From NCBI GenBank assembly GCA_905211265.1, contig CAJMAC010000007.1, positions 905 through 64,904 of the forward strand: DNA of 64,000 bases, read 5' to 3'. Within the stretch, counting starts at the first letter, position 1. Each line of letters begins with the position of its first letter. Under the pieces are notes generated by a model that did no database searches, had not been told where the DNA came from, and saw only the letters and a program-made list of their open reading frames with translations. The position numbers were made by a program, and so were the translations under genes. The stretch comes from an uncultured Eubacteriales bacterium. Its GTDB lineage: Bacteria; Bacillota_I; Bacilli_A; RF39; UBA660. Below, one piece after another: positions 19,193 through 41,383 of this stretch.

Positions 19193-19255
19193 AATTGTTG
19201 AATAATCTGTTTTGTGGTAAAATGGTATTAGGAAGTTATGAAGAGGTGTAATTTA

Positions 19256-20567: not shown

Positions 20568-20658
20568 TTTTTTAGTTAGTAATGACAATATGACAGGAAA
20601 TAGAGATATATGGGTATGTTGTAATAAACGCGTCATTGTTGTCATTGGGAATATAATA

Positions 20659-20722
20659 TTTGTCTAGCAAGCAATGAATTTGTACTCCCATACGAAATTC
20701 GCATGTGGGAATGCCCAAGCCC
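20659..20722 (+). repeat. Left arm of a ~65-bp inverted repeat
   Basis: TTTGTCTAGCAAGCAATGAATTTGTACTCCCATACGAAATTCGCATGTGGGAATGCCCAAGCCC. Roughly 85-90% identical by eye to the reverse complement of 23350-23415. Contains an internal palindrome CCCATACGAAATTCGCATGTGGG. Confidence 0.8.
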
Positions 20723-20817
20723 TTTAAATAGAATCTAGAAAAAAATAGAAGGAATTTTACTAGGAAAATAGTAGGAAAATACTATGATTAATTCAATTAT
20801 AATTAGAGGTGATTAAA

Positions 20818-21399: not shown

Positions 21400-21417
21400 A
21401 GTATAGGAGTTTGTCTT

Positions 21418-23253: not shown

Positions 23254-23349
23254 ACTTGTTTGGTTTATGCTAAATTTATGATAAAACTTGATGTTATGGA
23301 AAATTTAAAATAATTATTATTCATTACTTAAATTGATTTATAAACAATA

Positions 23350-23415
23350 GGGGATTGGGATTTTCCTACATACGAATTTCGTACGGGAGTACAAATTCAG
23401 TGCTGGCTAGACAAA
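23350..23415 (-). repeat. Right arm of the ~65-bp inverted repeat
   Basis: The reverse complement reads TTTGTCTAGCCAGCACTGAATTTGTACTCCCGTACGAAATTCGTATGTAGGAAAATCCCAATCCCC. Confidence 0.8.
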
Positions 23416-23496
23416 AGTTTGCCTACCAAATGATAAATTTGATATATTGCATGATCAAATCGAAAATTTTGAAATTGTTAAAATGGAGGTGAAATA

Positions 23497-25836
23497 ATGA
23501 TAAAAATAATAGTTTTTAATAAAACACTCCTAGTATTTTTGAAATTAATGTTTGCTTTAATTTCAAAAGTTTGGTCTATATTACATATTTGTATTGACTT
23601 TATTTTATATACTGGTGATAAATACAATGAATTAGTATTGGTATTAATAGGAGGAGAATTAACTTTAATAACCTTATTTTTCGCACTAATACCTACATTA
23701 GTAGATAAAAGAAATGATCAATATTATTTAGGTTATAAAATTTCAGAAATATTTTTATATGGTAACGGTAAAAAAAGTGAACTTACAAAAACTTGGATAG
23801 GCGGAATAATATTAGCATCAATAAATATTATATTTTGTTTACTAAAATTAGATAATTTATCATTTTTTTGTTTTACTATTTTTATAATGTTTTTTACTTT
23901 CAAAATTTTAAAATATTTAAATTTTATTTCGAATGATGATGAAATAAAAAATGAAATAGAAAAAAATTTTGTTAAAGAAGTTAATAGTAATTATAGTAGT
24001 TTAATTCAAAATATGTTTGATACATCTAAAGATAGTATGAAAAATATATATGATAATATGAATTTTTTATTTAAAATTAATGAAGATTCTAGAATTTTAA
24101 ATGATTACACTAATAAGTTATTAGATATAAAAAATATTAATCAAGATTCTATTTATTTTAAAATAGGTGAGTTTATTGAAGAAAAAAAATATAATTATTA
24201 TTTTAAGTTTGATTATTCTAAATTATATAAATATTTAAGAAATTCCATAAATGATTTTAATAAAGAAGACTATTATGGATTCATTCATACTCTATTGATT
24301 AATAATTATAATTGTTATATAAATAAACAAATGGAAAATATGGATGTTCTTGTACTACCTATATTTAGTGCAATAGATGATTCAAAATTATCAGCAAATA
24401 ATAGGCAAAACTTAAAAAATAGAATTATTAATAACATGAATATTTACATAAAAAAAGAGTATAGCATTTCTGATAAAGAGTACCCATATGTATATAAATA
24501 TGAATTCTATGTGTTGAAATATATTGTTGATAATAAAGATTTAAATTTATTTAATAAATTTATTAGAAATAATGATTCAAATTATACTAATTATGGAATT
24601 ATATATGATTTATATTTAACTTGTTTTTTATATTTATATTATCTAATTGAAATTGAAACAAAAAAATATGTTTCATTAGCTGATAAAAAAATATATAAAG
24701 AAATGTATAATCAATTATGCAAAGCATTTGACATTTCTAATTTTGAATTAAATGATTATTATTATAGAAATTTTAACGCTTTTTTCAAAAATCTAAATGA
24801 AGTCACTAATTGGTGGGAAAAATTTAATCTTGAAGATCAATGGGATTTAAAGACTTGCTTAGTGGATAGTTCTATAATTCAGTGTAAGAAAGCATTATTT
24901 ATAATTTTTGGGAAAGATTTTATAGGTAAAAAATATTCTATATCAGATGAAATTGTTAACTTGTTCAAATATGATTTTGAAAACGGAATTTTAAAGATTC
25001 AGAGTAAAGAGCAATTAAAAAGTGTTTTATTATTTTTTAAATATAATATAAATGATGAGTTAGAAAAATTTGAAGAAGATTTTTTAGAATTTGTATCAAA
25101 TAATTATAAAATTGATGAATTGTCAAAAAAAATAGATATTGAAAATTTATCGAAAAAATTAAATAATGAATTATCGATAATAAAAGAAAAAATCAATAAA
25201 TTGAGTATTATAAATAATAAAAAATGTAGCAATTTTGAGGAATGTTTTTGTAATATTAATTGCAGTAAAGATTTTTTAGATAGTTTTTATGCTAATAAGA
25301 ATTTGCTTAATGATTTGAATTTAGAATCGGCCTTAGAAAAATATGCATATGAATGTATTTTAAGCAAAGTAGAAAATAAAATATATCATAGCTACAAAGA
25401 TGATAAAATTATTGTTGATACTTTAGATAAAATTAAAAGTAGATATTTTTATTTTAGACCATCAAATGATTTATTAGGCGAAAAATGGAAGTTTGGAAAT
25501 AAATATAAAAATATAATATCGAGATATGAATTAGTCGATACTAGCATTTCAAAAATAAGAATATTAGTAAAAGATTATAATTGCTCAATAGAGAATATTT
25601 CATTAGAGTTAAAAGAAGTGACTGATGATTTTATTAAAAGTAAACTAAGAAGTCATTTTATTTCAAGAAATAAGTATTGCATAAAAAATGAATTTGGATT
25701 AGAGATATTTTTTACTAAAAAGGAATTTTTAAATTACTTAAAAAATACTGAGGTATTACTTCAAATAAAGATTAAATTTGGATTAGATATTTTTGGAAAT
25801 AAAAATATAGCATTTATTAGAAAAAAGGATAGTTGA
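23497..25836 (+). CDS. Large membrane-anchored hypothetical protein (779 aa)
   Basis: About 4 N-terminal TM segments, then a ~600-aa soluble Asn/Lys-rich region without recognisable motifs. Confidence 0.5.
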   Translation: MIKIIVFNKTLLVFLKLMFALISKVWSILHICIDFILYTGDKYNELVLVLIGGELTLITLFFALIPTLVDKRNDQYYLGYKISEIFLYGNGKKSELTKTWIGGIILASINIIFCLLKLDNLSFFCFTIFIMFFTFKILKYLNFISNDDEIKNEIEKNFVKEVNSNYSSLIQNMFDTSKDSMKNIYDNMNFLFKINEDSRILNDYTNKLLDIKNINQDSIYFKIGEFIEEKKYNYYFKFDYSKLYKYLRNSINDFNKEDYYGFIHTLLINNYNCYINKQMENMDVLVLPIFSAIDDSKLSANNRQNLKNRIINNMNIYIKKEYSISDKEYPYVYKYEFYVLKYIVDNKDLNLFNKFIRNNDSNYTNYGIIYDLYLTCFLYLYYLIEIETKKYVSLADKKIYKEMYNQLCKAFDISNFELNDYYYRNFNAFFKNLNEVTNWWEKFNLEDQWDLKTCLVDSSIIQCKKALFIIFGKDFIGKKYSISDEIVNLFKYDFENGILKIQSKEQLKSVLLFFKYNINDELEKFEEDFLEFVSNNYKIDELSKKIDIENLSKKLNNELSIIKEKINKLSIINNKKCSNFEECFCNINCSKDFLDSFYANKNLLNDLNLESALEKYAYECILSKVENKIYHSYKDDKIIVDTLDKIKSRYFYFRPSNDLLGEKWKFGNKYKNIISRYELVDTSISKIRILVKDYNCSIENISLELKEVTDDFIKSKLRSHFISRNKYCIKNEFGLEIFFTKKEFLNYLKNTEVLLQIKIKFGLDIFGNKNIAFIRKKDS

Positions 25837-25840
25837 AATT

Positions 25841-26143
25841 TCAATTATCCTTTAATTGTGTGATTGTAGATATTTTTAAATTATATTTAATTCTGAGTAT
25901 TTTTTTTACCTGTGGAACTAATTTATCAATATTACATCTTACATTAAATATATCTAGTGCAGAATTAATATGATTACGAAGTGGACAATCTGATAAACAG
26001 TTTCTACTATATCCATTTGCTAAGTAAAATGCTACAGCTTCTGGTATTACAAATCTAATAAGATATTCATTATAATTATTGTAGAATGGTAATAATATTT
26101 CTTCAAATTCTTTGTCAGTAATATCTTCTTTACCTTTAATCAT
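25841..26143 (-). CDS. Hypothetical protein (100 aa)
   Basis: ATGA overlap with the upstream tnpV-like gene. No motif. Confidence 0.45.
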   Translation of the reverse strand: MIKGKEDITDKEFEEILLPFYNNYNEYLIRFVIPEAVAFYLANGYSRNCLSDCPLRNHINSALDIFNVRCNIDKLVPQVKKILRIKYNLKISTITQLKDN

Positions 26144-26502
26144 ATTTCATCTCTATAAATAATCTCTTTTAAAATTATTTCTTCAGCAATGCTTTTATAA
26201 TTATTCATTTTTTGAACCCATAATAATTGATTTTCAAGTTTTAGTTTTTCTGTAATAGAAGTATCAGATTTTATTAATTCATTAATTATATGATTTACTT
26301 TATTTTCAGCATCTATACTTACTGAAAAAAGATGTTCATTTAATTTATCTTTCATAAGTAATTCTTGATATAATACTTTTTTATTATTCTTTAAATACTC
26401 TAATCTTAATAATCCATATTTATTTAATTGTTTGTTTTCTTTTTTAGCTAGTGTTAAATTTGGTAATAAATTATCACCACATTTTGTATAAGTTATATTC
26501 AT
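26140..26502 (-). CDS. tnpV: TnpV-like transposon-associated protein
   Basis: Track start is 26550. GAAAGGA precedes the ATG at 26502. YTKCGDNLLPNLTL...KYGLLRLEYLKNNKKVLYQELLMKDKL...EEIILKEIIY matches the TnpV family pattern of clostridial mobile elements (recalled from memory). Confidence 0.6.
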   Translation of the reverse strand: MNITYTKCGDNLLPNLTLAKKENKQLNKYGLLRLEYLKNNKKVLYQELLMKDKLNEHLFSVSIDAENKVNHIINELIKSDTSITEKLKLENQLLWVQKMNNYKSIAEEIILKEIIYRDEI

Positions 26503-26554
26503 AATATTTATCCTTTCATTTCTATGAAGAATTAATAATAGTATTATCAATTTT

Positions 26555-26575
26555 AGGTACCCATTTAGGTACTCA
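26555..26575 (+). repeat. Arm-type direct repeats AGGTACCCA / AGGTACTCA (right arm of island 1)
   Basis: Copies at 26555-26563 and 26567-26575. Same orientation and 12-nt period as the left-arm copies. They lie 116-136 nt left of the right core. Confidence 0.6.
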
Positions 26576-26690
26576 AATTGTAAAATTTGATAATTATATT
26601 TAAAATATTGTAATTAGTTATAATTTATAAATGCTTATAATATAAGGCTTTTAACTAGTAATAATTTATTTTGTGTGTGATATATTTTTG

Positions 26691-26893
26691 CCCCCTGAAG
26701 GAGCCGAAAGGCTCCGCTTTTTGTTTAAATCTAGAATACATACTACTAAAACTTGTATTCTTTTTATTATGTTTACTCTAAGCCTAAGGTCTTAGAGTGT
26801 TAGATTAAGCCTTTATAAAAGTCTTAATCTAATAGCATATGTTATTATTTATGTAGAAGATAACTAAATAAATAATATTATTTCAAAAAATAA
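26691..26893 (+). repeat. Structured repeat unit A (core + terminator + three hairpins + tail)
   Basis: - CCCCCTGAA core.
- GGAGCC-GAAA-GGCTCC followed by T5.
- TAGAATACA...TGTATTCT followed by T5.
- ACTCTAAG-CCTAAGGT-CTTAGAGT.
- TTAGATTAAG...CTTAATCTAA.
- ...GTAGAAGATAACTAAATAAATAATA tail.
Near-identical to unit B. Confidence 0.85.
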
Positions 26894-27023
26894 CTGAATT
26901 AGTAAATAAAGGTACTTGATTGCTAATTTTATTATTAGCATTTCGTAACTTCTAAATTTATTGCACTATTGTTTAAACTGTTATTATAATAGCGATATAA
27001 TTGTGTAAAAAAATTTTTATATA

Positions 27024-27045
27024 TTTGTCCGAAAATGTAGACAAA
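27024..27045. promoter_or_regulatory. Palindromic operator upstream of the XRE/C-protein gene
   Basis: TTTGTC-N10-GACAAA, about 60 nt upstream of the 27106 start. Confidence 0.4.
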
Positions 27046-27105
27046 ATCTAAAAAAAGTGATAAAATTAAATCTAGAAGGAATAATTTGGAGAAAGAAGTG
27101 AAAAT

Positions 27106-27627
27106 ATGAATTCAAATGAACTTAAAAATATTATTGAGAATGCTAGAATTGTTAAAGGAATTTCTCAAAGAGAACTTGCTAAATTATCTGGAATAAGTAG
27201 AAGTACCTTAAATGATATTATTAATGGGAAAATTAAAAAAGTAGATGTTGATTCTTTAAAAAAGATAGCTGAAACTTTAGATTTATCTTTAACTAATCTT
27301 TTAAAAATTGCTGGTTATGATGAATTTTTAGATTATTTGTCTTTAGATAAATATAAAAATAAATCCACGAAGGATTTAAAAGAAATGATTGAAAAATATA
27401 AAAAGTCAGAATTAGATTTATTAGATTTTGATGCACAAAAAAGAAAAAAGGTAAAAAAAGCAAGACAACACTTGTTTTATACAATTGAGCATTTAAAAAT
27501 AATGCAAGAAAGTAAGGATAGTTTATATACAATAGATAAAACTATAGAAGATATTAAATGGTGTTTTGATGAATTAGAAGATGTGGAACAGAAATATGAT
27601 TATGATAAATTACCAAAAGATATGTAG
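27106..27627 (+). CDS. XRE-family HTH regulator, likely R-M controller (C) protein
   Basis: ISQRELAKLSGISRSTLNDIINGK is an HTH_3 motif. The gene sits immediately upstream of the endonuclease gene. Confidence 0.75.
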   Translation: MNSNELKNIIENARIVKGISQRELAKLSGISRSTLNDIINGKIKKVDVDSLKKIAETLDLSLTNLLKIAGYDEFLDYLSLDKYKNKSTKDLKEMIEKYKKSELDLLDFDAQKRKKVKKARQHLFYTIEHLKIMQESKDSLYTIDKTIEDIKWCFDELEDVEQKYDYDKLPKDM

Positions 27628-27636
27628 GAGGATTAT

Positions 27637-28815
27637 ATGAAAATAAGTAATGTAATAGTAGAACAAATTCTTAATTCAACAGTTGTTGAAGATTATGCAG
27701 AAATATTAACTCCAACTGAAATGAAAGAAATAGTATGTGAATCATTTAAAGATTCAAGAGTAAGTTCAGATGGTTATATTTATGGTTCTTACACGGGAAC
27801 AAAATATTGTATATTATGCAAAAATATAAGTTATTTAGGAAATCCACATCCAATATATAAAAAACGCATTCAAATACCAGATGGTTTTATAACTTTATAT
27901 AATGAAAATATAAAAAAAGGTATAACAACGTTATTGATAGGAGTTTATAAATATAAAGATACTATATTATTTTGTGATTTTGATACTTCTAAATATATTA
28001 ACAATAAATCACATAATTCTTCAGCGCATATATATACGATAGATTTATTAAACGGTGTTAGAAATGGCATTTTTAAGAAGAAAGATTATAGAAATAACAT
28101 AATAACTGTTTTTGATGAAAACAATGTTAATAAGTTTCTTGAAATGAAATTAAATGTATCATCAACTACAGGAGTAGAAGTTTTTGATACATTAGATGAG
28201 TTTTTTGCATCTATGTTTAAAGAATGGGTTGGAATTGAATGTTATATGGAAATGATTGAAAATGGTTTTAATAACAAATTTCAACCAGAATGGCCTGGCT
28301 TTTACTTGGAATATAAATTAGAAAAGTATTTAGAGGAAAATCATAAAACAGATATTATTAGATATTGTCAAAATAAAAAGAATGGTGATGTTGATTTAGA
28401 TTTATATTTCCCAAAATTAGGGATGTATGGTGATTTAAAAACACATAGTTTAAATAGTAATGCTATTCAAGGTAATGATTACAATACAATAATGGATTTA
28501 ATAGAAAAACAAAGTGTATATTATATTGTTTGTAGTCATGAAACAGAAAAAGATAAAAACCATGGTTTTGTTGTGACAGAATTTTGGAATAGGGCTCAAA
28601 ATAAAACAGATTTACATAGTTATGGAAACAAAATGAAATATAGTGTAAAAATAACAAAGTATTATATATTGGAAATAAATAAATATAATAAAAAATATTT
28701 AGAAATATTTAAACAAGGAAAAAATAGTGATGGCAAATCTAGAGAACCAAAGATAATGATACCAGATAAATATATAGAAAATTTTCTTGTACATATTGTA
28801 GAATTTGATGATTAA
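27637..28815 (+). CDS. Putative type II restriction endonuclease
   Basis: Lies between the C protein and the C5-methyltransferase genes. Candidate PD-DxK core (DVDLDLYF...YGDLKTH). No family assignment possible by eye. Confidence 0.55.
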   Translation: MKISNVIVEQILNSTVVEDYAEILTPTEMKEIVCESFKDSRVSSDGYIYGSYTGTKYCILCKNISYLGNPHPIYKKRIQIPDGFITLYNENIKKGITTLLIGVYKYKDTILFCDFDTSKYINNKSHNSSAHIYTIDLLNGVRNGIFKKKDYRNNIITVFDENNVNKFLEMKLNVSSTTGVEVFDTLDEFFASMFKEWVGIECYMEMIENGFNNKFQPEWPGFYLEYKLEKYLEENHKTDIIRYCQNKKNGDVDLDLYFPKLGMYGDLKTHSLNSNAIQGNDYNTIMDLIEKQSVYYIVCSHETEKDKNHGFVVTEFWNRAQNKTDLHSYGNKMKYSVKITKYYILEINKYNKKYLEIFKQGKNSDGKSREPKIMIPDKYIENFLVHIVEFDD

Positions 28816-28883
28816 AATGAGTGAAAAGGGTAACTTTTTGAAGAAAAATTTGTTAAAATAAATATAATGTCAGGAGGAAAAAA

Positions 28884-30056
28884 GTGAAAAAGTTTAAATT
28901 TATAGATTTGTTTTCAGGAATTGGTGGATTTCATCAAGCAATGGAAAATTTAGGTGGCGAATGTGTTTTTGCTTCCGATATAGATAAATATGCAATAGAA
29001 ACTTATAAAGAAAATTATGGTATTGATTCAGATATAAATGTAAGAGATATTAAGGAAGAAGATATTCCTAAACATGATGTTTTATGTGCTGGTTTTCCCT
29101 GTCAAACATTTTCAAAAGCTGGAAAAAGAATGGGGTTTCAAGATGAAACAAAAGGAACACTTTTCTTTGAAATTGAAAGAATCTTAAAATACCATAAAAC
29201 AAAATATATAATTTTAGAGAATGTTAGAAATTTGGTATCCCATGATCATGGAAATACATGGAAAACTATTTATACACATTTGAAAGAATTAGGTTATAGA
29301 TTAACACCAAGACCGTTAATATTAAGTCCTCATCAGTTAGGTGTTCCACAATTAAGAGAAAGAGTTGTAATTTTAGGAATATATGATCCTAAAAATAGTG
29401 ATAAAGATTTGGCCTTTAATTTTAATGCTTTAGAAAAACTTAAAACTAAAGAAGATAACAATATATATGATATTATTGAAACAGGAAAAGTTGAAGAAAA
29501 ATATTATATAACTGAAAGAGAAAAATACATTTTAACAGCATGGGATAATTTTTATAAAGGAATAAAAGAAAAGGTGTTAGGGTTCCCTGTTTGGTTTGAA
29601 TATTTTAAAAAGAAACCAACTGATGATATGCCTAATTGGAAAAAGGAATTTATTGAAAAAAATAATAAGTTATATAAAAATAACAAAGAATTTATAGATA
29701 AGTGGTCTAAGGAATATAACAATTTAAAAGATTTTACTCCAACTCAAAGAAAATTTGAATGGCAAGCTGGAGATTCTATTGAGTCATTATGGGACGGATT
29801 AATCCAATTTAGACCATCTGGAATAAGAGTTAAGAAACCAACATGTTTTCCAGCTTTAGTTGCACTTGTTCAGATTCCAATAATAGGAAAGTATCAAAGA
29901 AGATTGACTGTAAGAGAAGCAGCAAGATTGCAAAGTTTTCCGGATAACTTTAAACCAAATAATAATGCTCAACAAGCATATAAGCAGTTTGGAAATGCTG
30001 TAAACGTAAAAGTAATTCAATTGGCAGCAGAAGAATTGTTTAATTACGAAGGGTAG
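28884..30056 (+). CDS. DNA (cytosine-5) methyltransferase
   Basis: GTG start. Motif I FIDLFSGIGGF, motif IV GFPCQTFS, motif VI ENV, motif VIII QLRERV, motif IX RRLTVREAARLQSFPD, motif X GNAVNV. Confidence 0.9.
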   Translation: MKKFKFIDLFSGIGGFHQAMENLGGECVFASDIDKYAIETYKENYGIDSDINVRDIKEEDIPKHDVLCAGFPCQTFSKAGKRMGFQDETKGTLFFEIERILKYHKTKYIILENVRNLVSHDHGNTWKTIYTHLKELGYRLTPRPLILSPHQLGVPQLRERVVILGIYDPKNSDKDLAFNFNALEKLKTKEDNNIYDIIETGKVEEKYYITEREKYILTAWDNFYKGIKEKVLGFPVWFEYFKKKPTDDMPNWKKEFIEKNNKLYKNNKEFIDKWSKEYNNLKDFTPTQRKFEWQAGDSIESLWDGLIQFRPSGIRVKKPTCFPALVALVQIPIIGKYQRRLTVREAARLQSFPDNFKPNNNAQQAYKQFGNAVNVKVIQLAAEELFNYEG

Positions 30057-30070
30057 TTCCTTCTTTTTTT
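30048..30070 (+). terminator. Terminator of the methyltransferase gene
   Basis: GAAGG-gtagtt-CCTTC followed by T7. The stop codon lies in the loop. Confidence 0.6.
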
Positions 30071-30077
30071 GTTCATA

Positions 30078-30108
30078 TTTTTGTAATATATTCAAAATAT
30101 TACAAAAA
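30078..30108. promoter_or_regulatory. Perfect 12/12 palindromic operator
   Basis: TTTTTGTAATAT (30078-30089), 7-nt centre, ATATTACAAAAA (30097-30108). It abuts the -35 box. Confidence 0.6.
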
Positions 30109-30112
30109 TATA

Positions 30113-30140
30113 TTGACAATATGTTCAAAATGTGTATAAT
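30113..30140 (+). promoter_or_regulatory. Near-consensus sigma-A promoter of the GHKL operon
   Basis: TTGACA (30113-30118), 16-nt spacer ending in TGTG, TATAAT (30135-30140). Confidence 0.7.
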
Positions 30141-30165
30141 ATGTGGTGAATGAGGGGTGACTGTC

Positions 30166-30381
30166 ATGGAACAGAAAAAAGCAAAATTTAGAGAATTAGC
30201 TGAAAAAAGAGTTAGCAATGCTTTAAAGCAAATTCAATTAATTGGTAATCTTTCTAACACAAGAGTATATGAATATGATGAGGAAGACATTAAGAAAATA
30301 TTTAAAACATTAAAAGAGGAAATTGGTTTGTCTGAAGCAAAATTCAAATCAAAAGGTAGAGATAGAAATTTTAAGTTTTAG
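30166..30381 (+). CDS. Small charged helical protein (71 aa), first gene of the GHKL operon
   Basis: Track start is GTG 30157. GAGGGG precedes the ATG at 30166. No motif. Confidence 0.55.
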   Translation: MEQKKAKFRELAEKRVSNALKQIQLIGNLSNTRVYEYDEEDIKKIFKTLKEEIGLSEAKFKSKGRDRNFKF

Positions 30382-30386
30382 AGGGA

Positions 30387-32645
30387 GTGATATTGATGTT
30401 GAAGAAATTATTTAATGCAAATAGCGTTAAGGATATTAATGAATTGATTAAACTATTAGAAAGTAAGTATGATACAGAATGGATTCCAGTAGGTAATAAT
30501 GAATCAAATCATTCAACTTTTCAAATGCTTGAAAGAGGCGAGAATGGAATTATAGAAAGGTTAACTAATGCAATAGATGCAGTTATTGAAAAAGAGTATT
30601 TTTTAAATCCTGATGAAAATTTAAATAGTCCAAGAAAATCATCAGAAAAATACTTTGGTATAAAAGAAGGTAATTTGGCTAACTACAATATTAAAGATAT
30701 TAAGAAAGAACTTAAAGATTTAGTAAAATTAAACGTTTTAGAATCAAATAAAAAAGGAAGACCCACTATAGAGATTAGAGATTATGGGATCGGATTATCT
30801 TCAGAAGAATTTGGTAAAACTATTTTAAGTTTACAAGGTGGAAACAAATTGAAAAAATTTTATTTAGCAGGAACATTTGGTCAAGGAGGATCAACTGCAA
30901 ATATTTTTTCTAAACACACATTATTTATCTCAAAGCCAATTCCAGAAAAGAATAATTCTAATAAAATTTCATTTACGATTACAAAAGAATTTAACGATTT
31001 AGATTATAAAACTCCAATTCATAAATATTTAGTATTAAAGAGTACTAAATGTCCTATAACTGTTGAAGATTGTAATAATGAATTTGAACCAGGTACACTT
31101 GTTAGACATATAGAAATGAATATTAATCAATATGGTAGAAGTAGTGCAAAAGCGCCAGGAGATAATAGTATTTATCATTTTGTTAATAAAAAACTATTTA
31201 ATCCAATTTTACCTATTAAAATAACAGAAAATAGATTAGAAGTTGATAGAACTAATATAGAAAGAAATAATAATACTATTGTTGCATTAGGATGTAATTC
31301 TAGATTAAATGATAATAGTAATGTTAAATATAGTGATAAATTGATTACTGAATATATATTCGGTGGAACGATAACAATTAATTATTGGATAATAAATGAT
31401 AGAAATTCATATAAAAACTATAATGATAAATCAACGCCTGTTTTATATACTATAAACGGACAGGTAGAAGGATATGAAACGGCCAATTTTTTTGAAAAAA
31501 TTGGTAAACCTTATTTATTAAATCATTTAATTGTAAATGTTGATTGTGACGGTATGGATGATAGAATTAAAGCAAGATTATTTACATCAGATAGAACTAA
31601 ATTTCAAGATAATGATTATACTGACACATTAAGAAAAAAAGTTATTAATATTCTAATCGAAGATATGAAATTAGTAGAGTTTAATAGATTCTTTAAAGAA
31701 CAAATGTTAAGTGAATCATCTGAGAATATTAGTGATGAGTTAAATAAAAAAATAGAGAATAAATTAAAGGTATTTTTAAATACAGGTGGAATTGGTAAAG
31801 TTTCTAAGGAGATTCCAACTCCAAAACCACCAAGACCAACCACATCAGAACCTTTTGAAAAACCTGAATTATTTGATTTTCCTACATTCCTTGATATTTC
31901 TAATCAAGAGCAATATGAGTTACCAATAAATAAAGATTTAGTATTAAATTATATTTCAGATGCTGACCATGAAAAATATTCAATGGAAGATAATTTGAAT
32001 TTTATAATTGAAAAAGAAAATATGCTAATATTTGATGGATTTAAATTTTATAAAAACGGGCATGGAATAATTAATTATAAATTGGCTCCAGAAGTAAAAG
32101 TTGGTGACGAAATATTCTTTAAATTATTTATAAAAGGATTTGATGATGATTCAAATTTATCATCTTCAATTATGATTAAAATTGTAGATAAAGAGAAAGA
32201 CGATCAACAAAATACAGAACAAACTAAACAACCACCAAAAATAAATACAAGATCTGTTTTTAAAACAAGCCAAGAATTTGATGAATTATTTGGTGAAGAT
32301 GAAGAATTGCCAAGTGTATTAAGAGACTCGGATGAATCTATTGATATATTTATTAATATGGAAAACAAATCATTAAGAAAACTACAAGAAAATACTACGA
32401 AAGGTAGCAATGATAATGATTCTGTTAAAATATTAAATAATGAATATATAAAACAGATTGCTTACTATAGTTTAATTTTACATATAAATGAATCTAAAAA
32501 ATCTGATGATGAAAAAATGAATGATAAATCAAAATCAGAAGAATTAAAAAGAGTAGCTATATTAATTACTGGTATGATTAATGATAATCTTTCAATTTAT
32601 ATAACAGAAAGTGGGAATAATAATGGAATTGAAGAATCTAATTAG
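30387..32645 (+). CDS. GHKL (Bergerat-fold) ATPase with large uncharacterised C-terminal region
   Basis: N box ERLTNAIDA, G1 IRDYGIGLS and G2 GTFGQGGST all fall within the first ~180 aa. There is no DHp/H-box. A PTPKPPRPTTSEP linker is followed by ~270 aa of unknown sequence. An alternative ATG is at 30396. Confidence 0.7.
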   Translation: MILMLKKLFNANSVKDINELIKLLESKYDTEWIPVGNNESNHSTFQMLERGENGIIERLTNAIDAVIEKEYFLNPDENLNSPRKSSEKYFGIKEGNLANYNIKDIKKELKDLVKLNVLESNKKGRPTIEIRDYGIGLSSEEFGKTILSLQGGNKLKKFYLAGTFGQGGSTANIFSKHTLFISKPIPEKNNSNKISFTITKEFNDLDYKTPIHKYLVLKSTKCPITVEDCNNEFEPGTLVRHIEMNINQYGRSSAKAPGDNSIYHFVNKKLFNPILPIKITENRLEVDRTNIERNNNTIVALGCNSRLNDNSNVKYSDKLITEYIFGGTITINYWIINDRNSYKNYNDKSTPVLYTINGQVEGYETANFFEKIGKPYLLNHLIVNVDCDGMDDRIKARLFTSDRTKFQDNDYTDTLRKKVINILIEDMKLVEFNRFFKEQMLSESSENISDELNKKIENKLKVFLNTGGIGKVSKEIPTPKPPRPTTSEPFEKPELFDFPTFLDISNQEQYELPINKDLVLNYISDADHEKYSMEDNLNFIIEKENMLIFDGFKFYKNGHGIINYKLAPEVKVGDEIFFKLFIKGFDDDSNLSSSIMIKIVDKEKDDQQNTEQTKQPPKINTRSVFKTSQEFDELFGEDEELPSVLRDSDESIDIFINMENKSLRKLQENTTKGSNDNDSVKILNNEYIKQIAYYSLILHINESKKSDDEKMNDKSKSEELKRVAILITGMINDNLSIYITESGNNNGIEESN

Positions 32646-33912
32646 TAATATGAATGGTGGAAATATTACTCTTGATGATGGTGTAATAAAAATCGATTCA
32701 ATTATTACTGAAGGAAAATATAATATACTTATTTCATTTTTAAATGAAAAAAATATATTTACAACAAATGATTTAAAAAAAATGAATGTTAATGATTATA
32801 ATAAATTGAAGATGGAAATACCAAATATTGATGGCGTGGGCGAAGAAAGAACCAAGTTGTTTATAAAGAAATTAGATAATGTTAGAAAAAACAAACATGA
32901 AATAAAAGCAAAAACACCAAATAAAAATGATTCTGAATATCCTATTGTAGAATTACTTGGAAAATTTAAAACTACTGTCAATTGGTCAGTAGAAATAAAT
33001 CATATATTATATAATAAATACGATGAGTATGTAGATATAAGACAAGTAAAAAATGATGGTACAAGAGGGAAAGGAATTTCTATAAAAAGACAAGATTTTG
33101 ATAAATTTAAAGAAATTATTTCTTCTATTAATTTGGATATTATAAAAGATAAAATAGTACCTTTAGAAAGTTTAGAATTAGAATCAGGTGATAAGAATGT
33201 TGAATCTACCAATACTTTGAACTTGGAAAAAATATTTTTTGAGAGCAATGAAAAAAAATCTTTAAAAGAACAGATATTAGAAAATGAAGACAGGTTATAT
33301 AAAGTGTTTAAAGATGATTTTGGGTTAGCAATAAAATTTTTTAAAGCAAAAATTGAAAGCCTTAGGGAAGATGGAGATATTGTAAAGTTTTTAGAAAATC
33401 CATCTATTCTTGATATAAAAAAAGAACAATTTGATAAGACACATATCAAAGGTATGAAAACCGCTATTGATATAAAAAATGATTTTGATAAAAGTGATTT
33501 GAAATATACAACAATAGATAGTTTGAATTTAAATGAAAGTGTTAATACAATGACTATTTGTAGTATAGCAAATAATTTTAATGTCATGTTAGGAATGTAT
33601 TATGATGACATAACTAAATCTTTAATATTGAAATGTCAAATTAAAGATGGAACTTATGAAGATAAATGGATTAAACCAAATAAAAAACTATATTATTGTT
33701 TACAAAATGAAACAGATGAAAATTTTTCAAGACTTAGTTTTTCTAAATATCCAAATACAGTCTGTAAGAATATATTATTTGGCTATGATCTAGAAACAAA
33801 AGTATATTTATTTTATAGATATAATAAAAATGATGACTATATATATGCTGGTGAAGTTAAATTAGAAAAATTTGTAAATGGTAATAAAGCAATTATAGTC
33901 AATATCGGATAA
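32623..33912 (+). CDS. HhH + PC4/YdbC-like ssDNA-binding domain protein
   Basis: Track start is GTG 32611. The ATG at 32623 overlaps the end of the GHKL gene. IPNIDGVGEERTKLFIKKL is an HhH motif. YVDIRQVKNDGTRGKGISIKRQDFDKFKEIISSI matches the PC4 signature. The C-terminal ~230 aa are unknown. Confidence 0.6.
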   Translation: MELKNLISNMNGGNITLDDGVIKIDSIITEGKYNILISFLNEKNIFTTNDLKKMNVNDYNKLKMEIPNIDGVGEERTKLFIKKLDNVRKNKHEIKAKTPNKNDSEYPIVELLGKFKTTVNWSVEINHILYNKYDEYVDIRQVKNDGTRGKGISIKRQDFDKFKEIISSINLDIIKDKIVPLESLELESGDKNVESTNTLNLEKIFFESNEKKSLKEQILENEDRLYKVFKDDFGLAIKFFKAKIESLREDGDIVKFLENPSILDIKKEQFDKTHIKGMKTAIDIKNDFDKSDLKYTTIDSLNLNESVNTMTICSIANNFNVMLGMYYDDITKSLILKCQIKDGTYEDKWIKPNKKLYYCLQNETDENFSRLSFSKYPNTVCKNILFGYDLETKVYLFYRYNKNDDYIYAGEVKLEKFVNGNKAIIVNIG

Positions 33913-34026
33913 CGAACACATTTATATAATGTCATAACGTCATTTTGCTAAGTATTAATGAAGAAAACAAACTATAATACAAATAATACGAGTTTATGCT
34001 CTTTTTGGGTTTTGGGAGGTGATATT

Positions 34027-37000
34027 TTGTATTATATTAATGATAAAGTAAAAGAAAAATTTAATAATGATGATTATTTTGACGGAAAAGAATATGTAAG
34101 AAAAATAAAAGAAGCGATTAAAACAAAAGATATTAAATCTATTGGTGTTTATGGCAAATGGGGAATAGGAAAAACATCAATAATCAAAAATGCTATTTCT
34201 GAATTAATTGAGGAAGGAGAATACGCAGAAAATCAAATAGTTGAATACAATGCATGGAAATATAACGAATACGATTTTATGAGAGATTTTTTAATAGTTT
34301 GCTCTAATAAAATTGAAGGAGAAAAAACTGCTAAAGAACGTGAAGAAAGTTATTATAGCGATAGTTCTGAAGATAGACAATTGTATGTGATGTTATGGAA
34401 AAAACTGGGAACATTTATAAAGAAAAGTTGGCGTGTTCTTTTGTTTCTTACAATTACATATATTGTTTCAGTAATAGTAATACTTTATATAAATTATTTA
34501 AAACCAACATTGTTTGATTGTGCTGATTTATTGATACCTTTAACTCTAACTTTAATTAGTTTTATTTTACCACTATTCTTAGTTTCCGAAATAACTCACA
34601 AGTCAATAAGTAAAAAGTTTTCTCCAGAACAATTTGCAAGAGATTTTGAGGATATAGTAAAAAATAAAAAAGTATTAATTTTTATTGATGATATTGATAG
34701 ATGTAGTTATGAAGAAATAAAATCTACTTTTGATACACTAAAAACATTTATTTTAGATGAGAGTTATAATGTTAAGTTTATTATACCGGTAGATCCAAAC
34801 ATTTTATTTAATTCATTGGAAGAACAAACATACGATTATTTTTCTAAAATTATTGATTTTCCTATAGAAATAAAGAATTATACCAAAGTAAAATTTGAAC
34901 CTTTAAAAGAAGAAATATTAAAAGAAGTAAATAATGATTATAAAGAAATAGTTAGTGATGGTTTATATTTAGCATCCAAATTCTACATTGATACACCTAG
35001 AAAAATGAAAAAATTTGCAAATGAATTTGTTAATGAAATATATAATCATTCTCCTAAAGAAATATATGATAAAGGATATATGTTTGCTAAATTGATAATT
35101 TTAAAGAATGAATTTCCAAATTATTATTATAATTTAATTAGGAACTATAATACAGTTATTGAAATAACAAAAGATGAAATAACAAACTATAAATCTAAAG
35201 ATTATACTGAATCAAAGAAACAAAAAAAAGGTGTTGTATTTAGTATGAGATTGCTGGACTTCTTATCAAAAACGGACAGTGTTGATTTATATAATTTCCC
35301 AATGTATGAAAATAAAATTTCATATTCAGAATATAAAATCAAAGCTATATGTGAGGATCCGTTTGTTAAAAATAAATTTGATGATAGAGTAAAAATAGAT
35401 TTAAAAGAAAATATAGTGTATTTAGATTATGAATTTTCTGAAAATATTATTAAACCTATAATAAATAATAAATTTTTATACAGTGATCCATTAAAAAGAG
35501 TCTGCTTTCTTTTCGTCGAATTTAAAAGACAAGAAAATAGTGAAATTTTCAATAAATATTTTGAAGAAATTATTGATAATTTCGAATCATTAAAACAAGA
35601 TTGTAATTTGTTTGTTTCAGAAAAGATAAATGAAGAAAATATTTCACATTTAAATTTAAAATATATATTTGAATGTGTAGAAGATTATATCGATTTATTG
35701 AAAGAACACAATAAGAATTTATTAAAGGATAATCTTTTAATAAAGATACTTCAACTTATACAAAATAATATAGATGGGAGTTTTCAATATGTTGAAGATG
35801 AATTATTAATATTTATTCAAAAATTTAAAGAATTAAAAAATGTTGATGACCCAAATATGATTAAAATAATTGATAAATTATTATCTAATAATTTTGAAAA
35901 ATACTATAAAGAATTAGATTGGTATTTAAAGTTTAGTTCATCTGCAGGTAAAACATGCTTTGTAGGAAATATAATAAAACTAATAGAAAATAATATAGAA
36001 TTAGACGAAGAGTTAATAGAAAAATATTTAGATAATAGATATTTTTCTATAAATACAAACAACTATTTTGATAATGTATCAAATAATATTGCTGATATAT
36101 TAGAGAAACCGAGCATCTATAAATGTATATTGTCACCATTATATAACAATTTAAACAGCAAAGATATTTCTTTTGAAAAACTAGAAAATGTAATTAATAA
36201 TACTAAATATATATCTAATAATGAGGATATTAATAAACTAATTTTAAGAATAGTATTAGAAATGAAAAAATCTATTGGCTTTGATGAAACCAAATATAAA
36301 TTAATTTTAACAAACATTGGTACAGAATATGAAAAAAGCGAATCTATTAGTAATCCATTTAAAGAATTTCTCGAAGAGTGTAACGATGACGATAGATACA
36401 TTCTTCTTGGTTATAATGAAGAAACTAAAATATTTAATAACTTTAAGGTGTTAAAAAATTATAAATTATCATTTGTTAATAAAGATTCATTGTTGTTCAA
36501 TATATTGTGTAATTCATACTGCAAATTTGAAGATTTTGTTGTAAAAACAGACTTAGAAAGACATGGCTTAAAATTATCAAGTCTAAAAAATGAAATAAAA
36601 AATATAATAAAAGAAAATATTGACAATACAATTTACCTTATTAACGATTTTAGTGAAGAAGAAATTAATGATATTGATTTTCAACTTTTAAATATAAATG
36701 AAATAAAGTTAGAATATATAGAAAATAAATATTTATTAACCAAAATTGTAAATCAATTAAAGATGAATGTTGACAATAATATAAGAAATATTAAATCAAA
36801 TAAAGAAAATAAAGAATTAATAAAAGAAGAAGTGGATAAATTATTGCTAAATGCAAATAAATTATATGCAGAAATAAAATATAGCGATAAAACTTTATGG
36901 ACAAAACTAAAAATAATAAATGAGTATCTGGCATTAAATGAATTAATTGATACTTATTATATTCCAAAATTAAAAGAATATCCCAATTTAATTAAATTAT

Positions 37001-37089
37001 TTAGTGAAGGAAGATATAAAGATAATTATATGAAAGATAATATATTTGCAGATAAAATATTAATAGGTATTGGCATAAAAAATGAGTAA
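34027..37089 (+). CDS. KAP-family P-loop NTPase with membrane insert
   Basis: Track start is 33958. GGAGG lies 7 nt before TTG 34027. Walker A GVYGKWGIGKTS. Two TM helices (VLLFLTITYIVSVIVILYI, LIPLTLTLISFILPLFLV) are inserted before Walker B VLIFIDDIDRC, the KAP hallmark. Long helical C-terminus. Confidence 0.8.
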   Translation: MYYINDKVKEKFNNDDYFDGKEYVRKIKEAIKTKDIKSIGVYGKWGIGKTSIIKNAISELIEEGEYAENQIVEYNAWKYNEYDFMRDFLIVCSNKIEGEKTAKEREESYYSDSSEDRQLYVMLWKKLGTFIKKSWRVLLFLTITYIVSVIVILYINYLKPTLFDCADLLIPLTLTLISFILPLFLVSEITHKSISKKFSPEQFARDFEDIVKNKKVLIFIDDIDRCSYEEIKSTFDTLKTFILDESYNVKFIIPVDPNILFNSLEEQTYDYFSKIIDFPIEIKNYTKVKFEPLKEEILKEVNNDYKEIVSDGLYLASKFYIDTPRKMKKFANEFVNEIYNHSPKEIYDKGYMFAKLIILKNEFPNYYYNLIRNYNTVIEITKDEITNYKSKDYTESKKQKKGVVFSMRLLDFLSKTDSVDLYNFPMYENKISYSEYKIKAICEDPFVKNKFDDRVKIDLKENIVYLDYEFSENIIKPIINNKFLYSDPLKRVCFLFVEFKRQENSEIFNKYFEEIIDNFESLKQDCNLFVSEKINEENISHLNLKYIFECVEDYIDLLKEHNKNLLKDNLLIKILQLIQNNIDGSFQYVEDELLIFIQKFKELKNVDDPNMIKIIDKLLSNNFEKYYKELDWYLKFSSSAGKTCFVGNIIKLIENNIELDEELIEKYLDNRYFSINTNNYFDNVSNNIADILEKPSIYKCILSPLYNNLNSKDISFEKLENVINNTKYISNNEDINKLILRIVLEMKKSIGFDETKYKLILTNIGTEYEKSESISNPFKEFLEECNDDDRYILLGYNEETKIFNNFKVLKNYKLSFVNKDSLLFNILCNSYCKFEDFVVKTDLERHGLKLSSLKNEIKNIIKENIDNTIYLINDFSEEEINDIDFQLLNINEIKLEYIENKYLLTKIVNQLKMNVDNNIRNIKSNKENKELIKEEVDKLLLNANKLYAEIKYSDKTLWTKLKIINEYLALNELIDTYYIPKLKEYPNLIKLFSEGRYKDNYMKDNIFADKILIGIGIKNE

Positions 37090-37102
37090 CTGATAAATTT
37101 TC

Positions 37103-37121
37103 ACCCATCAGCTACCCATCA
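37103..37121 (+). repeat. Tandem direct repeats ACCCATCA x2 (possible arm-type sites of island 2)
   Basis: Copies at 37103-37110 and 37114-37121, about 100-120 nt left of the core at 37222. The position mirrors the AGGTACCCA pair of island 1. Confidence 0.4.
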
Positions 37122-37191
37122 AATTAATATAAATTTATCAATTTTTGATTAAATTTTATTAAACTCTATATGAGTTATATGTCGATATTAC

Positions 37192-37218
37192 GGGGATTTT
37201 AAACAATCCTCTTTTTTT
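37192..37218 (+). terminator. Terminator after the KAP gene
   Basis: GGGGATT-ttaaac-AATCCTC followed by T7. Confidence 0.6.
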
Positions 37219-37221
37219 AAG

Positions 37222-37417
37222 CCCCCTGAAGGAGCCGGAAGGCTCCACTTTTTGTTTAAATTTAGAATACATATACTAAGCTTGTATTCTTTTTATTCAC
37301 TCTAAGCCTAAGGTCTTAGAGTGTTAGATTAAGCCTTTATGAAAGTCTTAATCTAATTGCATATGTTAACATTTATGTAGAAGATAACTAAATAAATAAT
37401 ATCATTTCAAAAAATAA
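37222..37417 (+). repeat. Structured repeat unit B (direct repeat of unit A)
   Basis: Same order of elements as unit A, with only scattered substitutions, from CCCCCTGAAGGAGCC to TTTCAAAAAATAA. Confidence 0.85.
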
Positions 37418-37523
37418 TCAAAATATTTTGATTATGATATAATTAGTTATGTAAGAAATATTGAATTAGAGAATATTCTCTTTGTAAAAAAAGGTATAAA
37501 AATAAGAAAGTGAGGAAAGACAG

Positions 37524-38053: not shown

Positions 38054-38087
38054 TAGAATACATATTACTAAACTTGTATTCTTTTTA
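38054..38087 (+). repeat. Repeat unit D (terminator hairpin only)
   Basis: TAGAATACAtattactaaacTTGTATTCT followed by TTTTA. Confidence 0.7.
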
Positions 38088-38185
38088 TTATATTTGTTTA
38101 AATAATAATAAAATTTCGCACTCTACAAAAAATAGAGTAAAAATGTCAAAGTTTTATGTTAGAATATACTTGTGGGTGAGGAAAT

Positions 38186-40010: not shown

Positions 40011-40155
40011 TATAACTAGAATACATAAATTAAAGTAATTTTTTTCTTATGTTCACTCTAAGCCTAAAGTCTTAGAGTGTTAGATTAAGCCTTTATGAAA
40101 GTCTTAATCTAATTGCCTATGTTAATATTATATGAAAGATAACTAAATAATAATT
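40011..40155 (+). repeat. Repeat unit C
   Basis: Starts directly after the stop codon with TATAACTAGAATACA. The second terminator arm is eroded. Then CACTCTAAG...CTTAGAGTG, TTAGATTAAG...CTTAATCTAA and ...GAAAGATAACTAAATAATAA. Confidence 0.8.
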
Positions 40156-40233
40156 TTAAAGTGCAAATATGTAACTTTTAAAGTGCAAAAATTGCACTTT
40201 AAAATTGATAAAATAAATAAAATATGCTATAAT
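40154..40233 (+). promoter_or_regulatory. Fic promoter with palindromic operator
   Basis: Half-site TTTTAAAGTGCAAAT (40154-40168). Palindrome TTTTAAAGTGCAAaaaTTGCACTTTAAAA (40176-40204). TTGATA (40205-40210), 17-nt spacer, TATAAT (40228-40233). Confidence 0.55.
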
Positions 40234-41311: not shown

Positions 41312-41383
41312 TATAACTAGAATACATGTACTAAGCTTGTATTCTTTTTATTATGTAATAGTTTTAATCTAATTGCCTGTGTT
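41312..41383 (+). repeat. Repeat unit E (terminator hairpin plus truncated distal part)
   Basis: TATAACTAGAATACAtgtactaagcTTGTATTCT followed by TTTTA, then ...TTTTAATCTAATTGCCTGTGTT. Same post-stop junction as unit C. Confidence 0.75.

Follow-up and report, generated by a model that had tools for sequence, protein, structure and literature searches.

The window analysed here is a stretch of 64,000 nucleotides in which a small RNA gene downstream of recG is followed by two islands and then by resident array DNA (Table 1). Island 2 (about 26700-37221) lacks an integrase and forms a discrete block between two copies of an att core. Its genes are those listed in the initial annotation: an XRE gene, a restriction-modification (R-M) pair, a GHKL trio and a KAP NTPase. 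The segment 27637-30056 encodes a predicted type II R-M pair, with adjacent endonuclease and methyltransferase genes. In the three-gene set that follows, the 752-aa protein has the GHKL motifs ERLTNAID (N-box, ExxxNxxD), DYGIG (G1, DxGxG) and GTFGQG (G2, GxxGxG) at residues 57, 132 and 162. It had no direct match in Pfam, NCBIfam, PADLOC or PDB; homologues at ~32% identity carry PF13589. The 433-aa protein has a weak PC4-like match and PDB matches only at E ~0.1. The three-gene set and the R-M pair travel together in other contexts. The KAP NTPase has weak matches to QatA and PifA. A Pfam search of the ORFs in 26691-37222 found no integrase (PF00589), relaxase (PF01076), AAA_25 or replication gene.

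Table 1. Features of the small RNA locus, the two islands and the adjoining array DNA, in window coordinates.
Feature	Position	Strand	Remarks
Small RNA gene, promoter and body	16475-16574	+	downstream of recG; its 3' end is the attachment site of the islands
Core copy 1	16566-16574	+	left junction of island 1
Island 1	16575-26690		intact integrative element: tyrosine integrase, AAA_25 protein, XRE, cargo, TnpV
Core copy 2	26691-26699	+	shared junction: right end of island 1, left end of island 2
Repeat A	26691-26892	+	starts at 9-bp core CCCCCTGAA
Terminator hairpin of repeat A	26700-26725	+	GGAGCCGAAAGGCTCC and T-run (terminator scan, fold); replacement 3' end of the small RNA
Unit A	26731-26892	+	AT-rich multi-hairpin intergenic unit
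Junction segment, 116 nt	26893-27008	+	promoter-like TTTAAA-18-TATAAT (promoter scan)
Mobile-element backbone: XRE operator/promoter and XRE gene	27009-27637	+	XRE 27106-27627, Pfam HTH_3
MTaX1-family type II restriction endonuclease	27637-28815	+	PADLOC REase_II E = 8.5e-56; Pfam MTaX1
C5 cytosine methyltransferase	28884-30056	+	PF00145, E = 1.4e-83
Three-gene set	30157-33912	+	74-aa small protein, 752-aa putative GHKL ATPase, 433-aa protein
KAP-family P-loop NTPase	33958-37089	+	PF07693, E = 1.9e-29
Conserved right end (P arm)	37037-37221	+	arm-type ACCCATCA at 37103-37110 and 37114-37121
Core copy 3	37222-37230	+	right junction of island 2
Repeat B	37222-37422	+	starts at core CCCCCTGAA; terminator hairpin GGAGCCGGAAGGCTCC and unit B at 37231-37422
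Promoter and leader of NUDIX gene	37423-37523	+	TGATATAAT, extended -10; resident array DNA common to most strains
Unit copy D	38054-38095	+	palindrome alone, truncated
Unit copy C	40016-40158	+	85% match; without core or terminator
Unit copy E	41317-41356	+	internally deleted

The 3' end of the small RNA gene is a target for many islands across the family. The gene has a TTGACA/TATAAT-like promoter upstream and two hairpins that vary in sequence while pairing is kept, and it ends in the invariant stretch ACCAAAACCCCCTGAA. The stem of its terminator covaries, and the hairpin found at 26700-26725 is also present at unoccupied sites in other genera. A 21-mer, CCAAAACCCCCTGAAGGAGCC, occurs with at most two mismatches in 63 of 301 family genomes, from 44 genera, and nearly always in one copy per genome; an Rfam search of the region gave no match. 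The core CCCCCTGAA is present exactly three times in the window (at 16566, 26691 and 37222), compared to 0.02 occurrences expected by chance, and homology to conspecific contigs that lack island 1 ends at 16574.

The direct repeats of ~200 bp that bracket island 2 (repeats A and B) are real, and their similarity begins at the core. They had been described as near-identical, which is too strong since they are only 90% identical: a gapped global alignment of 26691-26900 with 37222-37425 has 190 identical columns out of 211, one 5-nt and two 1-nt indels, and longest perfect runs of 42 and 32 nt. Ungapped matches join 26685-26742 to 37216-37273 (91%) and 26735-26893 to 37259-37417 (86%). Each repeat has two parts. 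The core and the terminator hairpin are the 3' end of the conserved, unannotated small RNA gene, and the remaining ~160 bp are a species-specific multi-hairpin intergenic unit. In unit A, the palindrome AGAATACA-N13-TGTATTCT and a T-run are followed by three further hairpins, and the unit folds into four to five separate local hairpins (z = -5.8). The portion of the repeat from TAGAATACAT onward recurs three times just downstream (unit copies C, D and E), and the unit is therefore not, as had been assumed, special to island 2. Elsewhere in the 1.35-Mb genome, the repeat search suggested in the initial annotation found just a weak 41-nt match, on contig C17.

The units also mark positions at which strains differ. 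In the conspecific contig L072, the terminator and unit A are 100% identical to those in the window and directly follow the small RNA. The genes 3' of the unit differ among the window, L072 and L056, and breakpoints in homology between strains fall at unit edges (26892, 37423 and 38094). Unit copies are truncated in various ways and the nucleotide at the junction after the unit is not constant; copies C and E start 6 nt past the stop codon of the preceding gene. We conclude that repeats A and B are composite. Site-specific integration duplicated the att core and small RNA terminator, and the rest of the two repeats is a pair of diverged copies of a unit that is also interspersed in the resident array downstream.

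The two ends of island 2 are not alike. At the right end, ACCCATCA occurs in tandem, 108-119 nt to the left of core B, and these are the only two occurrences in the window. As first noted, their position mirrors that of the island 1 pair TAGGTACCCA/TAGGTACTCA (26554-26575) to the left of core A. At the left end of island 2 there is no ACCCATCA-like site, with one mismatch allowed. The 116-nt segment between unit A and the XRE promoter region has no homologue among the fetched loci or elsewhere in the genome.

Homology on both sides of the cargo indicates that island 2 derives from an integrative mobilizable element (IME) of a very widespread kind. The region 27009-27637 has 95-96% DNA identity to loci L098-L105 and L107, and 37037-37222 has 82-90% identity to the right ends of complete elements and of an element in the conspecific contig L089. 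The homologous elements are found in at least 10 different genomic contexts, each with two bounding cores and with ACCCATCA pairs at both ends. From left to right, they contain the core, a terminator, a left arm (ACCCATCA twice), an integrase (380 aa), a Mob_Pre relaxase, an AAA_25 protein, two small genes, an XRE gene (173 aa), a swappable cargo slot, and a right arm (ACCCATCA twice) that is separated from the second core by ~110 nt. Genome G223 contains a complete 11.4-kb element with this layout, in which the 173-aa XRE protein is 46% identical over its full length to that of island 2, and the arm-to-core spacing is 114-125 nt, compared to 108-119 nt in island 2. A relaxase with 78% identity carries the label Candidatus Coprovivens, a taxon under Bacilli incertae sedis at NCBI. 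The cargo slot of the family holds defence systems (R-M, OLD with UvrD, GHKL/KAP). The homologous contigs searched did not include an intact IME with the exact cargo of island 2.

These comparisons bear on two earlier proposals. That island 2 has lost its integrase is supported by the homology of its XRE/promoter region and right arm to a complete element with integrase, Mob_Pre and AAA_25. In contrast, the XRE protein is not the R-M controller ("C") protein it was taken for; its gene is part of the mobile-element backbone and precedes unrelated cargo elsewhere. Decay recurs in this IME family. In L106, another remnant, integrase, relaxase and AAA_25 are likewise missing, both cores are kept and the XRE gene is frameshifted, and L088 and L093 contain remnants with truncated AAA_25, XRE and R-M genes in the same array.

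Island 1 is a separately mobile element with the same core specificity and different arm sites. Its tyrosine integrase gene is on the minus strand (16661-17776), the island has TAGGTACCCA arm sites at 16637-16658 and 26554-26575, and it stops exactly at core A. L072 is an exact empty site of island 1. In another species (L083/L084), the right end of island 1 is 99.8% identical and divergence starts inside the terminator. Tandem arrangements are found in other contigs as well: in L099 and L104, a full IME comes after a right end like that of island 1, and the conspecific L089 combines the same IME right end with another island in tandem.

As initially predicted, conspecific strains differ strongly at this locus, with at least four alternative contents among the conspecific contigs. 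Homology of the conspecific L070 and L074 to the window resumes at 37423, and most strains keep the NUDIX, CYTH, Fic order. All contigs in which the exact XRE and KAP proteins of island 2 were found either share its flanks or are short and break off at the repeats. Neither a clean deletion of island 2 nor island 2 by itself was seen in the conspecific contigs, and the predicted strain with a single repeat and no island was not among them.

We think it probable that island 2 is a decayed IME, that is, a cis-mobilizable element (CIME), that has accreted with island 1 at the small RNA hotspot. The left arm, integrase, Mob_Pre relaxase and AAA_25 module are missing and what is left is homologous to an IME, and therefore island 2 fits a CIME. 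Genes for integration and transfer are absent, remnants of a homologous IME backbone are present, and island 2 has neither an integrase of its own nor the PF01076 relaxase of an IME. The two junctions have an identical core, with two ACCCATCA sites in the right arm and a host-type terminator and unit on the left. Because there is no arm-type site on the left, the att sites of island 2 are only partly retained. Given the absent genes and the one absent arm, island 2 has probably lost the ability to move alone.

We postulate the following history. Elements of the parent family integrate by tyrosine-integrase recombination at the core, which directly precedes the small RNA terminator, and their left end supplies a replacement terminator; the parent IME would have entered in this way. 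The island would then have lost its left arm, integrase, relaxase and AAA_25 module and retained the XRE gene with its promoter, the defence-type cargo slot, the right arm and the core. A simple internal deletion in the IME leaves the terminator, unit A and the unique 116 nt unexplained, so we assume an additional event in which the left module was replaced by the host-type terminator and unit, which are native after the small RNA in a conspecific strain. This replacement could have occurred by a deletion within a tandem array, or else an aberrant excision could have picked up flanking DNA before the element integrated again. Later integration of island 1 at the core beside the small RNA would have resulted in the tandem accretion.

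A variant of this history, which we consider unlikely, is that island 2 is a "short-form" element and not a dead remnant. Aberrant excision could have dropped the integrase/relaxase/replication module and captured the host terminator and unit, and the resulting circle would re-integrate at the 17-bp identity around the core with integrase supplied in trans. If so, the units would be portable landing pads or shared homology for integrase-less defence cassettes that move between strains at the small RNA hotspot.

It also seems quite unlikely that island 2 is a functional satellite without an integrase, moved in trans by the island 1 integrase or as part of a composite. The core is identical at all three junctions, and the tandem resembles ICE/IME-CIME accretions for which composite excision and cis-mobilization have been reported (PMC5704250). 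In addition, all of the left repeat, starting with the core, is of the L072 type. If repeat B is the resident copy, the crossover would fall inside the 17-bp identity around the core, which would be expected of site-specific and not of homologous recombination. However, the island 1 integrase and the cognate ACCCATCA-type integrase share only 42.6% identity, and no arm site is present at the left end of island 2. Mobilization by this integrase, on which island 2 had been suggested to depend, looks unlikely because the arm sites differ. Furthermore, island 1 occurs without island 2 in another species, and the XRE and KAP proteins of island 2 are seen in the same context only. The assembled genome has no other integrase of the ACCCATCA-type family; it is 89.5% complete, so a cognate integrase could be encoded on the unassembled part.

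RecA-dependent homologous recombination between the ~200-bp repeats could likewise add or remove the cassette, with the units serving as portable homology between strains. Loss of island 2 in this way is possible in principle, given the long perfect runs shared by repeats A and B. The strain breakpoints at unit edges, and the variation among the window, L072 and L056 in the genes 3' of the unit, are also in line with such exchange. However, breakpoints at unit edges are expected anyway, because the units are the only sequence shared. None of the contigs examined has a single-repeat allele or a mosaic A/B repeat, the nucleotide position of the post-unit junctions varies, and the bona fide integrase arm and core at the right end are left unexplained. 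As the origin of island 2, we regard this explanation as improbable.

The region might be read as an integron-like cassette array, with attC-like units and island 2 as one large cassette: genes are co-directional, a conserved and strongly folded repeat separates them, and copies C and E follow a stop codon by 6 nt. We find this very unlikely. There is no integron-type integrase; the integrase of island 1 points away from the array, and its scores of 45.2 and 18.7 bits fall short of the respective cut-offs for TIGR02249 (265) and NF011946 (435). Each unit is made up of several local hairpins, where an attC site would be a single long imperfect palindrome, many copies are truncated differently, the cassettes have their own promoters, and the NUDIX, CYTH, Fic order is conserved in most strains. 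Lastly, a duplication created by mis-joining at the repeat, as the breaks of short-read unitigs at units (L065, L066 and L068) might suggest, is extremely unlikely, since recG, island 1, island 2 and NUDIX are contiguous in at least one independent ENA assembly and since A and B, differing at ~10% of positions, are two distinct copies.

The CIME that we favour is a structure of an already known kind, found in a new lineage. Decay of elements and accretion at a hotspot are a known route by which defence islands accumulate (see PMC5704250 for the CIME/accretion scenario). The locus provides a worked example, in an uncultured gut lineage with small genomes, of how a defence island of at least 40 kb is assembled. 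It could grow by serial insertion at one small RNA att site, decay to cargo-only blocks, and new accretion. The analysis also identifies a very widespread mobilizable family with a swappable slot for defence cargo, together with its conserved RNA gene target. Both should help in the annotation of metagenome-assembled genomes and in predictions of the location of defence genes. For the bracketing repeats, the corrected reading is that most of their length is reiterated unit and not att.

CIMEs and the accretion scenario, including Streptococcus thermophilus elements related to ICESt1 and ICESt3, have been reviewed (PMC5704250). Like island 2, the streptococcal CIMEs have lost genes for integration and transfer and kept flanking att sites, which in island 2 are retained only in part. 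Some are in ICE/IME-CIME tandems, in which the adjoining functional element entered the shared target at a later time, and the three-step history of integration, decay and accretion would be the same. Unlike those CIMEs, island 2 has as its target an unannotated small RNA, at the 3' end, and not a tRNA or protein-coding gene, its left att has a host-type terminator and unit in place of arm-type sites, and its functional neighbour, island 1, uses other arm sites.

Other known systems resemble parts of the locus. The parent family is similar to streptococcal-type IMEs (PMC5704250) in its tyrosine integrase, PF01076 (MobV/Mob_Pre) relaxase, AAA_25 (RepA-like) and XRE proteins, site-specific insertion at the 3' end of a gene, and accessory cargo. 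In contrast to those IMEs, island 2 is without integrase, relaxase and replication genes, and the parent family is found here in uncultured gut bacteria with small genomes and carries defence systems in its slot. The proposed origin of island 2 has an analogy in the lambda dgal and lambda bio prophages, in which one end is lost and host DNA from the other side is gained. By this analogy, a circle composed of XRE, cargo, right arm, core, terminator and unit would, on re-integration, give rise to repeats of the host segment; unlike with lambda, there is no phage or packaging, and the event itself is one that we infer. Chromosomal integron arrays, with repeats such as those of Vibrio cholerae, share with this region units that run in one direction and a structured repeat of ~120-170 bp. 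Unlike those arrays, the region has no integron integrase or attI, its repeats are local hairpins that are often truncated, its cassettes have their own promoters, and its order is largely fixed among strains.

Island 2, the defence-gene block without an integrase that lies between direct repeats A and B, appears to be one half of an integrative mobilizable element (IME), running from the XRE gene to the right arm. The parent IME family occupies 494 index blocks of the assembly collection, in many chromosomal contexts and often beside recG. Its members have the layout integrase, Mob_Pre relaxase, AAA_25, genes of 84 and 107 aa, XRE (173 aa), a cargo slot, a right arm of ACCCATCA repeats and the core, the 9-bp att sequence CCCCCTGAA. 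For example, a complete 11.4-kb element in genome G223 lies between two cores and has a ACCCATCA pair at each end. It carries an integrase (380 aa), genes of 190 and 482 aa, AAA_25, XRE (173 aa) and, ahead of the right arm, R-M cargo. Contig L098 likewise encodes a 380-aa integrase of this ACCCATCA type. We assign island 2 to the XRE-to-right-arm half of such an element because its XRE segment and its right end are homologous to these IMEs (see table). The cargo between XRE and right arm differs, and other copies have N6/C5 methyltransferases and an HNH protein, or OLD and UvrD. Island 2 lacks the left arm, the integrase, the relaxase and the AAA_25 module, and has no ACCCATCA-like site at its left end; no gene for an integrase, a relaxase or replication lies anywhere between repeats A and B. 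The initial annotation had described direct repeats that start at the core, tandem ACCCATCA copies and the genes between the repeats, all of which are real (repeat identity is 90%), and its suggestion that island 2 had lost an integrase is borne out by homology to complete IMEs with the other modules absent.

Other remnants of the family were found. One (contig L106) retains both cores and has a frameshifted XRE. Two more sit further along the same array in conspecific strains, and contain a truncated AAA_25 (87 aa), two small genes, XRE and R-M genes. A conspecific contig (L089) has the same type of right end as island 2, placed in tandem with another island, and on two contigs (L099 and L104) an island-1-like right end is followed by a full IME.

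The left end of island 2 is not what a plain internal deletion would leave. In L106, the element's own terminator adjoins XRE, as expected of such a deletion. Island 2 instead has, at its left end, a terminator and unit A and then a 116-nt segment that is unique; a search for the origin of this segment found no homologue. Over 202 nt, the terminator and unit A show 100% identity to what directly follows the small RNA gene in the conspecific contig L072, where they precede the promoter TATTTTGATTATGATATAAT and a different gene. The same promoter lies downstream of unit B, there with a NUDIX gene. One possible history is that, in an L072-like host, an aberrant excision linked the end of the flanking unit to a point upstream of XRE. 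The product would be a circle that held XRE, cargo and right arm, followed by core, terminator and unit, and that could then have inserted anew at the core in a strain with unit B. Alternatively, a deletion could have occurred inside a tandem array. If the circle formed, the wholly L072-type left repeat would place the crossover within 17 bp of identity around the core, and this would favour integrase over homologous recombination.

The direct repeat itself has two parts. A terminator scan identified the first ~35 nt (core, hairpin GGAGCCGAAAGGCTCC and T-run) as an intrinsic terminator, and the remaining ~160 nt, from TAGAATACAT on, form a unit that folds into four to five hairpins (z = -5.8). 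In a gapped alignment, 26691-26900 and 37222-37425 are 90% identical, and the longest perfect runs are 42 and 32 nt; without gaps, identity is 91% between 26685-26742 and 37216-37273 and 86% between 26735-26893 and 37259-37417. The initial annotation had raised the possibility that the unit recurs elsewhere in the genome (1.35 Mb, 37 contigs, ~23% GC). It does so just downstream, in three more copies, but otherwise only as a single weak 41-nt match on contig C17. Comparison of the copies indicates that they have been shortened in differing ways. In one copy, on L072, both hairpin loops are inverted relative to all other copies and the stems are intact; that is, the spacer between inverted repeats is flipped. 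A 32-mer taken from the unit had 0 exact matches when species-representative genomes were scanned, and a looser palindrome pattern gave only unrelated, chance matches. Because there is no true match in other species-representative genomes, the unit appears to be species-specific. A metagenome scan recovered two related contigs only (L056 and L057), each of which stops shortly past the unit or enters a different gene.

Features at the island locus. Coordinates are those of the window unless a contig is named.
Feature	Coordinates	Remarks
541-aa ABC-F gene	10521-12371	
Putative small RNA gene, unannotated	16475-16574, with terminator at 26700-26725 or 37231-37256	compared at loci L024-L055
Core CCCCCTGAA	16566, 26691, 37222	3 copies in window vs 0.02 expected
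Island 1	16575-26690	
Repeat A	26691-26892	
116-nt segment	26893-27008	
XRE, operator and promoter	27009-27637	95-96% DNA identity to IME family elements
Five-gene set	27637-33912	
Island 2 right end	37037-37222	82-90% identity to right ends of IME family elements
ACCCATCA	37103, 37114	only copies in window
Repeat B	37222-37422	
Unit copy	38054-38095	in front of HTH-CYTH gene
Unit copy	40016-40158	in front of Fic gene
Unit copy	41317-41356	in front of methyltransferase gene
Right flank of array	60624-64000	
Unit copy with inverted loops	L072 12255-12400	
IME remnants	L088 17189-20447; L093 17202-20447	
Islands with 370-aa integrase	L070 12136-16890; L074 4877-9866	
Locus content 1		island 1 + island 2 (window)
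Locus content 2		AAA_15/RloB island + 370-aa integrase
Locus content 3		Fic/ASCH island + same 370-aa integrase
Locus content 4		unit A + Fic and other genes, without NUDIX (L072)

The region in which these elements are inserted is probably a conserved small RNA gene of ~100 nt. Of 301 family genomes, 63 from 44 genera contain the 21-mer CCAAAACCCCCTGAAGGAGCC (allowing up to 2 mismatches), almost always as a single copy. A TTGACA/TATAAT-type promoter and two hairpins lie upstream of the 21-mer in each genome, and these hairpins vary in sequence and preserve their pairing. ACCAAAACCCCCTGAAG is an invariant stretch, the terminator stem covaries and, by eye, so do the two upstream hairpins. The gene is downstream of recG in the window species and in genome G011. 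In many genomes, tandem arm-type repeats (TAGGTAC.. or ACCCATCA) lie directly past the terminator, which points to the 3' end of the RNA gene as a shared attachment site, apparently for at least two integrase lineages. ARAGORN found no tRNA or tmRNA in the window, ruling these out as the integration target, and in Rfam searches of the window, the att region and unoccupied sites in relatives, neither the target nor the unit matched a known RNA family. In many MAGs, a contig stops no more than a few tens of bases from the terminator of the small RNA gene (G011:C2, G024:C37, G079:C12, G106:C68, G320:C44, G226:C6, G316:C5, G146:C46 and G105:C22), consistent with strain-variable islands that break assemblies at a hotspot.

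Island 1 is a separate, active element. It encodes a tyrosine integrase and has TAGGTACCCA pairs inside each end. L072, which has an identical RecG protein and flanks 99.3% identical to the window, joins 16574 straight to 26691 onward, the exact empty site of island 1. Two contigs of another species (L083 and L084) have the island 1 right end at 99.8% identity (versus window 23381-26725). The homology ends within the terminator, with different chromosomal genes beyond, and the near-identity points to a very recent transfer between species. The flanking genes there are ATP_bind_3, tRNA_edit and a cation ATPase.

Conspecific strains have at least four alternative contents between 16574 and 37423 or 38094 (see table). 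The two islands with the 370-aa integrase (on L070 and L074) share the left arm TAGGTACA, the integrase and an S24-like gene, and differ in the cargo between arm and integrase (AAA_15/RloB versus Fic/497-aa/ASCH). Neither has a second core, and in both the window sequence resumes exactly at 37423, which is the right edge of unit B. The ABC-F gene also shows presence/absence polymorphism: conspecific contigs L070, L072, L073 and L074 lack it, with 10520 joined straight to 12372. The initial annotation had pictured island 2 as a potentially mobile cassette, either gained or lost by recombination between the repeats or dependent on the island 1 integrase in trans. Loss by homologous recombination is possible, and none was observed in the contigs: look-ups via RecG, NUDIX (two alleles), XRE, KAP and TnpV, each covering part of the indexed contigs, revealed no clean empty site with one repeat followed by NUDIX. 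The exact XRE and KAP proteins of island 2 were found only in the window's arrangement or on short contigs that break at the repeats; assembly ERZ28620970 is an example with the window's arrangement. Mobilization in trans is not favoured. The island 1 integrase is the sole one of its family in the assembled genome (89.5% complete), and it has 42.6% identity to the cognate IME integrase and uses different arm sites. Membership of the array in an integron was rejected on integrase profile scores and the fold of the unit.

From repeat A to repeat B, the genes encode XRE, a restriction enzyme of the MTaX1 type and a C5 methyltransferase, followed by ORFs of 74, 752 and 433 aa and lastly a KAP NTPase. 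GHKL motifs occur in the correct order in the 752-aa protein, and its distant homologues carry PF13589; direct profile and PDB searches with the 752-aa and 433-aa proteins gave no assignment. In other genomes and contexts (L108-L116), the MTaX1 endonuclease, C5 methyltransferase, a 71-74-aa protein, the GHKL ATPase and a ~410-430-aa protein occur together. That they travel together suggests that the R-M pair and the three-gene set are not separate but belong to a single composite defence system. A search via GHKL homologues for an intact element with island 2 cargo found none, and the five-gene module lay outside complete elements. The ~44 kb from 16575 to ~60600 seem to be one defence hotspot, because the variable array ends at a conserved right flank of response regulator, histidine kinase, ABC and FtsX genes (L109-L116). 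In other strains the hotspot contains BREX, reverse transcriptases, type I R-M and STAND NTPases.

In the published order of events, an element integrates, decays to a cis-mobilizable element (CIME) that keeps its att sites, and is joined by a newcomer that accretes (PMC5704250). The probable history of island 2 matches this streptococcal-type sequence of integration, decay and accretion, and we think it probable, on comparative sequence grounds, that island 2 is a CIME accreted with an integrative element, a known structure. New here are the small-RNA target, an IME family with defence cargo, and the captured terminator and unit.
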